DNA of 64,000 nucleotides from Candidatus Marinacidobacterales bacterium (GTDB taxonomy: Bacteria; Acidobacteriota; Vicinamibacteria; Marinacidobacterales; SMYC01): assembly GCA_965237955.1 (NCBI GenBank), contig OZ250169.1, forward strand, positions 3,552,001 through 3,616,000. The letters are read 5' to 3'. Of this stretch, positions 1,174-63,513 are shown one piece after another. Every line of letters begins with the position of its first letter. Positions within the stretch are counted from its first letter, which is position 1. A program made the position numbers and the translations under genes. The notes under the pieces were generated by a model that saw nothing but the letters and a program-made list of their open reading frames with translations, had not been told where the DNA came from and did no database searches.

Positions 1174-1344
1174 CGTCCTGTGCCAAAACTCGCCCCTCTT
1201 GAAATAGACCACAAATCAGCAGCTTAGACGCCCTTGGAATCCGCCGACCCTTGGGCTGCGTGGCGAGCTACGGGCAGTGAACTTCGCACCCGGAAGTCCT
1301 TTATTAGACTGGACTTTATCGAGCACAAGAGCGAACGTTCGGTG

Positions 1345-1782
1345 ATGCCGCAGGATACAGGGGTTGGCCGGAACGTCGTTTTGGACGGTTTGGACTTCGC
1401 CAGCTTACGGCGGGTCTGGGAGCAGGCCTTCGGGGCTGCTCCCCCACGCTCGCTCTCTCGCGTTTTCATGCGCCGCGTTCTCTTGCACAAACGCCAGTGC
1501 CGTACCCATGGCGGGCATTCGGCCACAACCCGGCGCGCTCTGGCTGCCATGGCGAACGGGACGCCAGGCAACGGCGCCGCCGCTCCCGCAGGATCCGTTT
1601 CCCCCGGTACCCATCTCGTCCGCGAGTGGAATGGCCGGACCTACCAGGTCGAGGTAATCGACAACGGCTATCGGTTCGATGGCAAAACCTATCCGTCCCT
1701 CACGGCCATCACAAAGCAAATCACCGGCACCCACTGGTCAGGACCACGCTTTTTCGGTCTGACGCCCAAGCGCAAGGCCTAA
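1345..1782 (+). CDS. DUF2924-like protein
   Basis: PGTHLVREWNGRTYQVEV...YPSLTAITKQITGTHWSGPRFFGL; directly upstream of a serine recombinase, the usual context for this family. Confidence 0.85.
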   Translation: MPQDTGVGRNVVLDGLDFASLRRVWEQAFGAAPPRSLSRVFMRRVLLHKRQCRTHGGHSATTRRALAAMANGTPGNGAAAPAGSVSPGTHLVREWNGRTYQVEVIDNGYRFDGKTYPSLTAITKQITGTHWSGPRFFGLTPKRKA

Positions 1783-1783
1783 C

Positions 1784-2926
1784 ATGAAGAAAATCCGCTG
1801 TGCCATCTATACGCGAAAGAGCGCGGAAGAAGGTCTCGAGCAGGAGTTCAACTCCCTCGATGCGCAGCGAGAAGCCTGCGCCGCGTATGTCGCGAGCCAC
1901 AAGGCGGAAGGCTGGGTGCTGCTGCCAACCGTCTACGAGGACGCGGGGATCTCGGGAGGAACCCTGGAGCGCCCGGGCCTACAGCGCTTGCTCGCCGACA
2001 TCGATGCCGGTCTCGTCGAGCAGATCGTGGTCTACAAGGTCGACCGGCTGACCCGTTCCCTCTCCGACTTTGCAAAGCTCGTCGAGCGGCTCGAGGCGGC
2101 CGGCGCGGTTTTCGTCTCGGTGACTCAGTCCTTCAACACCGCGACCAGCATGGGACGACTGACGCTGCATATGCTGCTGTCCTTCGCACAATTCGAACGC
2201 GAGGTCACGGCCGAGCGGATCCGCGATAAGGTCGCTGCCTCCAAGCGCAAGGGACTATGGATGGGCGGCCGCGTACCGCTAGGCTATGAGAAGGACGGGC
2301 GCACGCTGCGCATCAACGAGGCTGAGGCCGAAACGGTCCGGACGCTCTATGCGCTGTACCGGAAGCACGGAACGCTCCGGCAGGTGAAGGCCGACGCGGA
2401 CCGTCTGAGACTGCGCACCAAGCGACGCTTCGCCGCGGATGGAACCCGGACAGGCGGGTTGCCGTTCCGTCGCGGACACCTCCACTGCCTGCTGACCAAT
2501 CCTCTCTACGCCGGCCGCATCCGGCACCAGAGGCGTGTCTACGAGGGCCAGCATCCATCGATCATTGCTCCGGAGCTCTGGGACACGGTCCAGGCGCAGC
2601 TGCAGGCAGGGGCTGCCAAACCAAGGAGACGCACGACGAAGGGCCGTGCAGCCCGTTCCCCACTGGCAAGCAAGCTCTTCGACGAGACCCGGGACCGGCT
2701 GACGCCGAGCCACACCAAAAAGAAAAACGGGCAACGGCTCCGCTACTACGTCTCCCGGCGCCTCATCCAGCACAGTGGCCAAAAGGACCTCTCCGGCTGG
2801 CGGCTGCCCGCCCCGATGCTGGAACAGACCGTCGTGCATCTCATCCGACAGCATGTGGATGCCACGACTTTCTCGGCCTCGTTGATCCACACTCCGACGA
2901 TGCAAGAGAGCTTGCCTCGGTGGGTT
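1784..2926 (+). pseudogene. Large serine recombinase (resolvase + recombinase domains), truncated by IS5-family element
   Basis: CAIYTRKS, NSLDAQRE, VVYKVDRLTRS, SFAQFEREVTAERIRDK, GLWMGG; frame runs into an IS end at 2927. Confidence 0.9.
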
Positions 2927-4011
2927 GCCTTGGTGCACAACTCCGATAGAGGCCGAGAGCTCGCTTGGCCCCGACTCCCATCATCCGATCATCTCGCTAT
3001 CAGGCATCCCGAGCGCCGTCATCGTGTTGAGAATCTTGCACCCGATCCTTGCCTCGACTCTCTGTGCCGCCAACCCTCTCGCTCGCATCGCTGAGCCCAC
3101 GATAGCCTTGTAGCGATGGAACGTTGTCTCGACTTTGCTCCGTTTGCTGTAGCCCGATTCTGTGTGCCACTTTCGTTTGCCGAGCCGAGCTTGTGCTGCA
3201 ATGTTGCGATTGCGCTGTCGGCTGCTCGCAGGCCCCGATGCGAGCTGGGCGCCCGTGCGCGGCGGTATCAGCACCCTCGGCGAGCGATGAGCGCTGTGAT
3301 TCTCGATCGCCTCATAGACGCCGCTGGCGTCGTATGCGGTGTCAGCTCTGGCAGATGAGATGGGACTGTCAATCTGTCCGACAAGCGATGCAACCCGCGA
3401 TGAATCGCGGGCTCTTTTGCTCGTCAGCTCGCCGGCGACGACTTCGCCACTCTGCTCGTCGACACACAGATGGAGCTTGCGATAGTCCCTGCTCTTTGGT
3501 GCTCTGCGCAGCTGGCCGGCGTGGACAGCGAGACCGCTGCTGTCGATCAAGATGTGCAACGGCGTCTTCTGCTTGTCTTGGTAGAAGGGGACCTTACCCA
3601 GCTTCGCCTTGCGCCTCGAAATCGTGGTGTGATCGGGCACATCATTGTCTAGCTTCATCAGAGCGAACAACGATCGCAGCAATCCCTCGCTCTGCCTAGA
3701 TGACAGATGAAACACCATGCCCAGGGTGACAGCCGTCTCGATGGCGTGGTTCGAGTACTTGCGTTGACGGCCCAGTTTCCTCCTCCTCGGCCGGGGCGCG
3801 TCCCAGTTCACAAGCTTGCCGGCGGTGAGCGAGATCCAGACGGTCAGGCTCCCACGGTTGCGTAGACCCGCCTCATATTCACGCCAATTCCTCACGCGAT
3901 AGGCCTTCTTCACATACTTCCGCTGAGTGCGTTTGAAAATGCTCATGGGGAACCTCGAATCCGTGAGTAAAGGACAATTGTGGACCGAGATCGCGAGTTG
4001 TGCACCAAGGC
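2927..4011 (-). mobile_element. IS5-family (IS903-like) element, family 1, copy 1
   Basis: Terminal IR GCCTTGGTGCACAACTC...GAGTTGTGCACCAAGGC, 1085 bp; no flanking duplication. Confidence 0.9.
2981..3946 (-). CDS. IS5-family DDE transposase
   Basis: YRVRNWREYEAGLRNRGSLTVW, ILIDSSGL, YRKLHL, ADTAYD, GYSKRSKVET. Confidence 0.92.
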   Translation of the reverse strand: MSIFKRTQRKYVKKAYRVRNWREYEAGLRNRGSLTVWISLTAGKLVNWDAPRPRRRKLGRQRKYSNHAIETAVTLGMVFHLSSRQSEGLLRSLFALMKLDNDVPDHTTISRRKAKLGKVPFYQDKQKTPLHILIDSSGLAVHAGQLRRAPKSRDYRKLHLCVDEQSGEVVAGELTSKRARDSSRVASLVGQIDSPISSARADTAYDASGVYEAIENHSAHRSPRVLIPPRTGAQLASGPASSRQRNRNIAAQARLGKRKWHTESGYSKRSKVETTFHRYKAIVGSAMRARGLAAQRVEARIGCKILNTMTALGMPDSEMIG

Positions 4012-61593: not shown

Positions 61594-61926
61594 GGAGCCG
61601 AAGCACCTTTCAGACATAGGAGTCGCTTTTGCCTCGATTAAGCCCACGTCGCGATTCGGAAACACCCCTGATATGCTGAAGAACTTGCCAGCCAATATGC
61701 GAGGGTACCTCAACAACGACAAGCGAAAGCGACACGCGAACCACCGACTCTTTGTAAACCCCAGGCGCGGATACTGGGGTCTGTCGAGATTCGGCACCAA
61801 GCGCGCAACTGACATGACAAGTCAAATGGGGTTCGATCGAGGTTGACGACTGCTCCCGCGAACACCGCGCTCGAACGCAGACGCCACAGCACGTTCCAGC
61901 ACATCTGGCCGAAGCCCCTGCAGCGG

Positions 61927-62610
61927 TCACTCAGAGCAGAAGGGCTGCTCATTTGACTCGCTTAGCCGTCGATTGATCCAGTCTTGAAGAAGGATCGTGC
62001 CGGAGTCGGTGGCCATCGCTTCCAATGTCTCCGGTAACGACTCCCGCCACTTGGCGCCGACAAGATCCTCAAGCGCTCCCGTGTACTCAAGACCCGGTGC
62101 ACGGATAACCCATCCATCGGTTGTCGTTCGTTCAAAAAAGGCGGAACTGTCGCATCCCTTCTCAACCTCAGCCAGCAGGTTCGTTCCTGCTTGATCCGAC
62201 GGCATCAAGAACACGATCATCCACGCAGCGTCCTCGTCAGAGGTACATGGCGGCGGTGTGCCCGATCCGCTGTATGCTCGATCGATGTAATCCGGAACAG
62301 ACATCGTGTCGCTGTTTCGTTCACTCAGAAAGAACGCGACGAGCTCCGCTTCGTCGTCGGTGAGTATGTCCTCGATTCTTGCCGAATCCTCGATGCCCGG
62401 CGCACGAAGAACCCAATCACCGTCCTGCGTGCGCTCGAAGAAGGCTGAACTGGCGCAACCGTTCGCGACTTCATCGCGCAGACCGATAGCACTCGCGCTG
62501 ACCGTGTCTCTGACTTCGATATACGTCTGCCCGCCAAGCACAGAGTCCGGATTCTGTCCCAGGGCCTGCGCGGAAACGAGGCTGATCCAGACAAGTGAAG
62601 ATAGGTTCAT
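61927..62610 (-). CDS. Secreted hypothetical protein with two homologous domains
   Basis: Signal-like N-terminus; GCASSAFFERTQDGDWVLRAPG and GCDSSAFFERTTTDGWVIRAPG. Confidence 0.75.
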   Translation of the reverse strand: MNLSSLVWISLVSAQALGQNPDSVLGGQTYIEVRDTVSASAIGLRDEVANGCASSAFFERTQDGDWVLRAPGIEDSARIEDILTDDEAELVAFFLSERNSDTMSVPDYIDRAYSGSGTPPPCTSDEDAAWMIVFLMPSDQAGTNLLAEVEKGCDSSAFFERTTTDGWVIRAPGLEYTGALEDLVGAKWRESLPETLEAMATDSGTILLQDWINRRLSESNEQPFCSE

Positions 62611-62775
62611 CTTTGTCATTCCCCTTGTACTGCAAAGTGAATTCGATCGTGGTGTTAGCCTCGACAACTCCGAGTACTAACAGCCGGTGTTGATCATAAG
62701 TAGCGAGTAGGAACGTGTCAAGTGGGGGCTGTCGCGTCCCAGCCGATTCGGAACAGTCGATGAGTAAGATCGGGT

Positions 62776-63160
62776 CTACGCGGATTCGTGTGGGTTGAAG
62801 ACGGCATTTCTGGGTAATGGCGGAAGGAATGCCGCCACGATCTTCAGCTTGAGATATTCCTCGTCGCGATAGCCGTAGGCGCGTCGTTGCAGAACACGGA
62901 TTTTGTTGTTGACCCCTTCAACTAGGAGGCGCAGACGTTCCATCTCGGCCACCGCCTTGTCCGGCATATCCCGGCACAGCTTGCCCACATGCGTCGCAAA
63001 ACGCTGGGTGTAGCGCGAGTTGTTCGCCAGCCAGTCTAGGTGTTCTACATGCACACCGCCGCACCCAGAACAGTTGACGCGCCAACGCTCGTATTCCAGA
63101 TAGATCCGCCAGCCTGCCAACGACAGGTCGCGGACCCGGCACACTTGCTTGGCCTTCTTA
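62776..63160 (-). pseudogene. Internally deleted ISL3 transposase remnant
   Basis: RVRDLS...VNCSGCG...RYTQRF joined to VEGVNNKIRVLQRRAYGYRDEEYLKLKI. Confidence 0.8.
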
Positions 63161-63513
63161 GAAATCAAGGATCTTGAGAATCTTGCGAGCAGATCTGCGC
63201 GGTTGGGCCAAGCATCTTGAGGTAGATCCGTGCTTCCAGGCGCGCCGGATCCGTCTTCGTGGTGTTGGCGATTCGACAATATCGGCCTTGGTGGGCCGGA
63301 CAGTTCCCCCGCTGATGCCCAGGGTGCCGACTATAATAGTGATGAAGGAGCCTCATCGGTGGGCCTTTTATTGGCCCGGCCGCAAACACAGACACTAAGC
63401 TGCTGATTTATGGTCTATTTCGAAAGGGTCGAGTTTTGGCACAGGACGGGGTCGATGGAGCCGAGAGAAGGCGAAGAGCACTTGGACGGCGGGCCTGGGG
63501 AATAAAAACTTCA

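Follow-up and report, generated by a model that had tools for sequence, protein, structure and literature searches.

Background

DDE transposases are defined by the concerted attack of two ends on one target. The closest described relatives of elements A and B, the subject of this report, are the insertion sequences (IS) of the IS481 and IS3 families, which share with them terminal inverted repeats, a single open reading frame (ORF) of helix-turn-helix (HTH) plus rve type that encodes about 355 amino acids (aa), and a DD(35)E catalytic triad mostly followed seven positions on by K or R, and which supply the best hidden Markov model (HMM) matches. IS3 and IS481 elements carry 5′-TGT tips, as the accessible text of one source has it (10.1101/2022.12.17.520857), and the available portions of the same work define IS1202 by TGT-type tips, repeats of 5–6, 16–17 or 27–28 bp and a Q seven residues after the catalytic E. 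Elements A and B occur in a stretch of 64,000 nucleotides (the window), positions 3552001-3616000 of contig OZ250169.1 from a Candidatus Marinacidobacterales bacterium, and they depart from these families: they score far under the curated cut-offs, have CGT tips, lack a duplication and use an asymmetric target. Each has a single ORF, unlike IS3 with its orfA/orfB arrangement and −1 frameshift, and unlike IS1202 they combine CGT tips with no repeat of 4–15 bp and an R or K seven residues after the E. A and B are otherwise recognisable DDE insertion sequences with a real, family-wide set of unusual traits, and the best reading of their junctions, at a probability of roughly 55%, is single-end strand transfer into end-like targets, resolved with deletion.

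Ends and their termini

The source genome is a metagenome assembly consisting of one contig of 8.13 Mb, with a contamination estimate of 6.2%. An initial annotation of the window, made from its letters alone, had listed 23 A ends and 15 B ends, and all 38 are real and lie where it placed them; the start that it gave for nearly all of them, CGTC[C/G]TGT, is exact at 36 of the 38, the ends at 32470 and 50323 reading CCTCG and CCTTC. Its count of a single full-length A and a single full-length B likewise stands, and two further A copies (50741-51994 and 42747-43857) are cut by other ends. The phenomenon had been taken for a local feature of this island and is instead genome-wide and family-wide. 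A census that searched with only the 19 bases from the inner TGT onward, leaving the five outer bases free, yielded 727 ends (497 A and 230 B), of which 709 were retained for later tests. The free outer bases read CGTCC at 454/476 A ends and CGTC[CG] at 189/219 B ends. One flank-plus-end pattern occurs 360 times in this genome, never in 150 other genomes of the phylum and, when reversed, never in this genome, which excludes a chance origin of the ends. No strand bias of the ends was evident by eye, and none of the ends was found in viral contigs.

The outer five bases had been described as an extension outside TGT, perhaps due to an unusual cleavage position, and as absent from the targets. 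The absence holds: the four named empty alleles each lack these 5 bp, with 97 matches for TTACCC^AGCTTC, 26 for GCCACC^TCATCG, 41 for CACACC^TCTGCC and 48+16 for TGACCC^AGCCAG, the first and last being the two targets said to read ACCC^AGC. Moreover, 139 of the 210 ends with a matching empty allele have no base in common with it across the outer five, so that these bases are not target. The extension itself has to be given up. A scan of the distant family drew on 95 loci (18 from genomes and 77 out of 80 from metagenomes) and searched their 184 flanking stretches with a profile of positions 6–19 only; at the 98 ends that passed, which come from unrelated samples, positions 1–3 were C, G and T in 95, 95 and 94%, positions 4–5 were variable, and position 6 was T in 83% and G in 16%. 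The whole CGT was present at 86/98 of these ends and TGT at 1/98; CGT is thus the family-wide terminus and the inner TGT varies. On sequence grounds, then, CGT is the true terminus, a variant of the TG tip of IS3 and IS481, and the nick would lie 3′ of ...ACG. In one Streptomyces relative the two tips differ, one being TGT and one CGT, while the tips of the more distant Bradyrhizobium relative and of a second Streptomyces relative begin TG. A 2-bp CG duplication beside a tip of TCCTGT was also considered and ruled out, since the empty alleles mostly lack the CG.

The target sequence

The target has the consensus GA(C/T)CC^NGT, of about 5 bits. The CC(C) flank bias noticed in the window extends to A flanks genome-wide (n=476), where A stands at −4 with a frequency of 0.67 and C at −2 and −1 with 0.89 and 0.77. 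The flank logo is non-palindromic and alike at left and right ends (100 vs 65 ends for A), and the same logo recurs in related genomes and across the distant family. On the attacked strand the target, GACN^GGRT, resembles the filled junction, GACG^GGGT. Six of the 113 A targets with good support show, in the filled flank, a C at −1 or −2 that is absent from every empty allele; this C may be carry-over from the donor flank. No usable empty allele was found for the distant relatives: the flank of the Bradyrhizobium copy occurs in no other holder, and two Streptomyces plasmids have the left flank without the right one and diverge too near the junction for a target to be read.

Duplications, mates and symmetry

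The window had been said to lack target duplications, and the complete copies of the genome bear this out, with in-place duplication at 0/21 for A and 0/6 for B. An ISL3 element used as a control has an in-place 8-bp duplication at 46/51 copies, including 6/6 within the same islands, which rules out general scrambling or misassembly as the reason for the missing duplications. No duplication of more than 3 bp was seen in 121 inward pairs, in 54 units of related genomes or in 33 complete distant relatives, the last being isolated insertions elsewhere in which ordinary duplications might have appeared (0/33). The inward-pair test scored repeats of 4–15 bp, and longer repeats were covered by co-mapping within 20 bp, found at 0/46 pairs with both flanks known. 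Duplication mates of any length were absent among 218 A ends with empty alleles, and B gave single cases only. An apparent B signal of 8-bp mates (5 vs 0.8 expected) was set aside, because a single end paired with four copies of the same flank accounts for four of the five pairs.

Missing in-place duplication alone is not special to A and B, because two IS903-like elements of the same genome lack it too (0/80 and 0/51). These elements do show enrichment of separated 9-bp mates, with 7 vs 0.6 expected and 3 vs 0.1 expected, which is what replicative transposition within one molecule would produce. They also merit mention in their own right. IS5a (window 2926-4012 and 11384-12470) has 80 complete copies spread genome-wide, while IS5b (window 35097-36181 and 56825-57909) has 51, with 127/127 ends in islands; their pattern is replicative to an unusually pure degree.

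The strongest result comes from target symmetry. Two equivalent ends attacking one site must leave a target that is symmetric about the stagger, and self-symmetry, r, was measured over staggers of −6 to 12. The controls peak sharply, ISL3 at 0.93 for 8 bp (n=15) and the IS903-like elements at 0.86 (n=57) and 0.71 (n=58) for 9 bp, while the best values at any stagger are 0.24 for A (n=163) and 0.21 for B (n=53), and those at a stagger of 8 are 0.01 and −0.10. Since no stagger gives a symmetric A or B target while the controls peak, A and B junctions did not arise from the attack of two ends on a single site. A 1-bp duplication around a pseudo-palindrome centre was rejected on these same best values.

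Distribution, units and inner limits

Of the retained ends, 670/709 (471/490 A and 199/219 B) lie within 2.44 Mb of islands, vs 16/124 ISL3 ends. Two-ended units have multiplied with nearly every flank different: the 23 full A copies have 46 distinct flanks, and the multi-copy minis include a 317-bp unit present 15 times (29/30 flanks distinct), a 129-bp unit present 10 times, and 392-bp and 134-bp units present five times each. About 80 ends of a variant, A-prime, lead into a unit of about 3.4 kb with a DUF2924 gene and a large serine recombinase, which terminates in an A or B end in some copies and is truncated in the majority. Most ends are solo remnants of 20–100 bp. Island matches to the A end include none of 12–14 bp and 105 of 15–29 bp, a count that unit copies and doubly mutated ends inflate and that fits a minimal working end of 15–20 bp.

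When 707 ends were sorted by their inner limit, 66 were full length, 87 were cut by a known element end, and 554 stopped at other joins, mostly with 0–4 bp of overlap and none of them a known element end. The genome has a Ku gene, and an end-joining role for it would be a guess. At the inner joins of truncated ends, other recurrent sequences were met, beginning TGTGCTCCGC, TGTGCCTTCT and CTAGTCCCCT, with over 100 copies; these look like further unclassified IS ends. An array like clustered regularly interspaced short palindromic repeats (CRISPR), with about 70 repeats, lies at ~156,400-161,600 of the contig, with an A end at 161577 just past it, and the empty copy of the flank of the A end at 520296 runs into the repeat of this array.

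The elements and their transposase

Element A is 1428 bp long, with inverted repeats of about 102 bp starting CGTCCTGTGCCAAAAC, and element B, of 1348 bp, is 64% identical to A across the gene. Each encodes one HTH + rve_3 ORF, and the genome holds 23 full A and 6 full B copies, dispersed; 14/21 full A copies have a single open frame of 381–385 aa across the catalytic motif, with no programmed frameshift. D162, D228 and E263 are invariant in 27 aligned sequences, which gives the DD(35)E motif, and the residue seven after the E is mostly K or R. Scores against NCBIfam models fall well below the cut-offs for IS481 (NF033577, 100.2 vs 224 bits), IS3 (NF033516, 84.2 vs 160) and IS21 (17 vs 160), as does that for IS630, and there was no IS6 model match. 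The predicted fold (model pLDDT, a per-residue confidence score, 70.6) has as its top Foldseek matches IS21 IstA, TnsB and HIV integrase, at E-values of 8e-8 to 1e-6; a search of PDB sequences with the transposase returned only Sleeping Beauty (E 0.058).

A related rve_3 element, C, which the initial annotation had not seen, has 31% aa identity and 16 complete copies. It has TGT tips, the CC flank bias and no duplication of more than 3 bp, and it may share the mechanism of A and B.

Proposed one-ended transfer with deletion

One-ended, deletion-forming transposition had already been suggested for the window, and it draws support from the symmetry test with its controls, the lack of mates and the confinement to islands. 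Under such a mechanism the transposase would nick at ...ACG-3′ and join that one strand at GACN^GGRT; as this site mimics the junction of end and flank, the enzyme would be treating end-like DNA as its target. The branched product would then be resolved by host replication or repair, with loss of the target half facing the element. That half gives no peak among 240 targets, and so is not retained; the earlier statement that the other half of each interrupted gene is gone is checkable at 15 of 37 window ends, those with an empty allele. Two-ended units (the full IS, the minis of 129–392 bp and the 3.4-kb recombinase cargo unit) would spread by joining their ends at two different sites or by successive one-ended steps, and ends from about 15–20 bp upwards would be served in trans. 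Each event would remove DNA, so that ends would persist almost exclusively in dispensable islands, which they would turn into mosaics.

Several points weigh against this account. Neither an intermediate nor a fresh event came to light. Sister copies gave 0 cases of stepwise outward deletion, with about 2.2 expected by chance, and among 158 cases of solo ends no gap class was enriched that would point to one-ended replacement of target DNA. Co-linear flanks with a gap of 21–500 bp show a weak excess (4/46 vs 1.6 expected), reached in 64/1000 shuffles. The model does not show the step that would resolve the intermediate and raise copy number, and the island borders were outlined by eye from the distribution of the ends, which makes the confinement figures partly circular. 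Finally, 554 of the 707 ends stop at joins that match no known element end, which implies that the islands are further shaped by a second, unexplained process of deletion.

A broader proposal can be put forward only tentatively. It holds that a large, unnamed family of at least 7998 homologues has single-end transfer into an end-mimicking target of 7–9 bp as its normal reaction, that short solo ends would act as portable, trans-activated sites of deletion and fusion, and that in these symbionts the system might have become a common engine that shuffles 2.4 Mb of accessory islands, moving cargo such as the large serine recombinase between genera.

Alternative explanations

It is conceivable, but unlikely, that A and B are ordinary copy-out-paste-in IS of the IS3, IS481 or IS30 kind, which insert by two ends with a duplication and whose primary flanks have nearly all been overwritten by adjacent deletions. 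The DD35E-K/R core and the top HMM matches to IS481 and IS3 would suit such an origin; adjacent deletion is a frequent cause of missing duplications, going by the accessible parts of PMC11708052 and of the IS30 network study PMC9333248, and the visible junctions would be one-ended all the same. Yet no primary pair survives, either here (0/46) or in the units of relatives (0/27), there are no frozen stepwise deletions, and scattered copies from unrelated samples have the same logo and no duplication (0/33). Among assembled sequences, the abutted-end junction was not found in this genome (shortest spacer 12 bp), five relatives, the Joint Genome Institute (JGI) metagenomes or the contigs of four runs, a long palindromic junction being hard to assemble.

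An improbable second option is conservative flank exchange, in which the enzyme would make a real end trade flanks with an end-like site or with a further end, in the manner of the targeted conservative cointegration of IS26, a reaction that occurs at single ends according to the available text of PMC7885326. The likeness of target and filled junction (GACCC^NGT vs GACCC^CGT) would be expected here, as would the six A targets with an added C, and eight pairs of A and B ends have a common flank, one of them with no empty copy in the genome. By a rough estimate that was not computed, hot spots in multi-copy elements that are hit repeatedly would produce about this much sharing. The reciprocal product, in which the old flank would adjoin the target's remaining half, gives no junction peak among the 240 targets; the signal of a separate scan for reciprocal scarless junctions was drowned by repeats, the CRISPR array among them.

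Replicative (cointegrate) transposition within one chromosome, as in IS6 and IS903, would separate the duplicated halves by inversion or deletion, a mechanism set out in the accessible portion of PMC7986276. This would account for the missing in-place duplications, and it does so for both IS903-like elements here. It also needs both ends on one site, and hence a symmetric target and some mates, both of which the controls show and A and B do not; the symmetry test largely refutes it, and its probability is small.

Assembly artefact, or homologous recombination between repeats that scrambled ordinary insertions, is very improbable even for so repeat-rich a metagenome assembly with its contamination estimate, since scrambling would keep mates and symmetry, the longer ISL3 keeps its 8-bp duplications in the same islands, units of 129–317 bp, shorter than a read, also have unrelated flanks, independent assemblies give the same logo, and contigs of four other runs leave the flanks exactly at 56563, 58639 and 59538, carrying target sequence. 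One other-run contig has an empty ISL3 site with its 8-bp overlap. Among the matches listed, no other-run contig bridged a filled junction, and those runs therefore probably hold other strains.

The family and its relatives

All 7998 scored candidates passed as members (7998/7998), which makes the family at least that large. Relatives occur in Myxococcota, Gammaproteobacteria, Rokubacteria, Gemmatimonadota and others and carry no annotation beyond 'integrase core domain-containing protein' or 'transposase InsO family'. Of 30 related genomes, 8, belonging to five other genera in two families, have element A at 96–98% identity, an indication of recent horizontal spread; sponge metagenomes make up several of the runs in which the element occurs. 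Provisionally, the A/B family is one of unclassified, cross-phylum DDE insertion sequences with 5′-CGT tips and a GA(C/T)CC^NGT target. No description of it was found in the literature, with subscription journals and ISfinder outside coverage, and it may already be listed in ISfinder.

Leptospira plasmids encode homologues of about 30% aa identity behind a conserved HTH gene, with a motif of about 15 bp directly repeated on both sides of the ORF; the mutual similarity of the plasmids stops just after the downstream copy of the motif. These homologues were considered as family members and set aside for their different end layout.

Implications

A and B depart from the DDE pattern in three measured ways: a 3′ tip of CG instead of CA, an asymmetric target that mimics their own junction, and a lack of duplications and mates. 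Thousands of 'integrase core domain-containing proteins' would gain defined ends and a target, although the Streptomyces and Bradyrhizobium relatives are more distant and mostly have TG. One-ended transfer, hitherto a side reaction, can now be tested directly as a main pathway, using an enzyme of 355 aa and an end of about 20 bp. It is also a concrete candidate cause of the megabase mosaic islands of sponge-associated bacteria and, if true, would be a new main route by which a transposon reshuffles a genome.

Other features of the window

The elements, units and ends of the window are collected in Table 1. In addition, a peptidase M9 (collagenase-family) gene is interrupted by an ISL3 copy at 53670-55385 that has an 8-bp duplication, and another run has the empty allele. 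A group II intron reverse transcriptase, above the TIGR04416 cut-off, lies at 36675-38078.

Table 1. Coordinates of transposon-derived features in the window.
Feature	Coordinates	Strand	Remarks
Full-length A	24887..26316	+	1430 bp, ~102-bp inverted repeats, no target duplication
A transposase, HTH + rve_3	25015..26019	+	Copy frameshifted near C-terminus
Full-length B	30345..31693	-	1349 bp; transposase split (ORFs 31104-31622, 30506-31240); abuts A-copy position 381
First 381 bp of A copy	29964..30344	+	Cut by B end at GCCACC^TCATCG
First 1111 bp of A copy	42747..43857	+	Cut by B end at CACACC^TCTGCC
B-derived mini unit, 216 bp	43858..44073	.	4 copies in genome
A copy minus first 174 bp	50741..51994	+	Cut by A end 50740 at TGACCC^AGCCAG; catalytic core intact
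A right end, ~210 bp	50531..50740	-	Itself flank of B end 50530
B-derived mini unit, 208 bp	50323..50530	.	
Internally deleted A unit, 596 bp	18294..18889	.	Left target TTACCC^AGCTTC
Internally deleted A unit, 900 bp	58639..59538	.	Flanks co-linear, 132 bp apart, in one empty allele elsewhere in genome
A-derived mini unit, 134 bp	61347..61480	.	5 copies; one end 20 bp
First 113 bp of A copy	61481..61593	-	Cut by 134-bp mini unit
B-ended unit, 185 bp	32286..32470	.	
A-prime cargo unit	1174..2931	+	A end, DUF2924 (1234-1782) and large serine recombinase (from 1784), cut by IS903-like element
Solo A-prime end	6279..6349	-	
Solo A-prime end	12929..12999	-	
Solo A-prime end	34995..35065	+	
Solo A-prime end	50076..50146	-	
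Solo A end, 61 bp	44100..44160	-	
A left end, 205 bp	49150..49354	+	Inner side joined to B end 49355-49459
B end, 105 bp	49355..49459	-	
Solo A end, ~33-45 bp	55827..55871	+	
Solo A end	56563..56624	+	Contigs of four other runs track flank, diverge from window at junction
Solo A end, 78 bp	63371..63448	-	
Solo B end, tip 4372	4349..4372	-	
Solo B end, 60 bp	5527..5586	+	
Solo B end	8641..8705	+	
Solo B end, 44 bp	27422..27465	+	
Solo B end, 40 bp	34920..34959	+	
Solo B end, 80 bp	47014..47093	-	
Element C	41349..42694	+	rve_3 relative of A/B

Comparison with known systems

IS21 differs from A and B in having an IstB ATPase partner, for which the 1428-bp A, with its one ORF, leaves no counterpart; the score against the IS21 model is only 17 bits. 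An IEE-like primase was looked for through AEP-TOTE, the Pfam family linked to IEE, and the genome gave no match. IS26 resembles A and B in that it builds mosaic islands, rarely leaves in-place duplications and reacts at single ends, but its transposase belongs to another family, it makes 8-bp duplications at new sites and it leaves whole copies. The IS903 subgroup of IS5 shares the lack of in-place duplication (131 complete copies here) and differs in its symmetric 9-bp target and separated mates. Single ends also mobilise DNA in IS91 and Tn3-type one-ended transposition and in the telomeric one-ended TnsB transposons; the IS91 transposase is an HUH enzyme. The telomeric TnsB elements use two bridged ends and make 5-bp duplications, as described in the available part of their report (10.1101/2024.11.13.623437).

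The nearest parallel to the proposed reaction is step I of the copy-out-paste-in pathway (IS911, IS2 and IS30), which likewise engages one end and one strand, favours end-like targets and can give deletions without duplication. The accessible text of PMC3299598 presents asymmetric single-strand transfer as step I of IS3, IS30, IS21 and IS256, and 'sloppy' transfer to non-end DNA is proposed as a source of deletions in the portions available of 10.1101/2023.06.07.543989 and PMC9333248. In those systems, however, single-end transfer is a step towards the circle or a side reaction and insertions flanked by duplications dominate, whereas in A and B it would be the main reaction.

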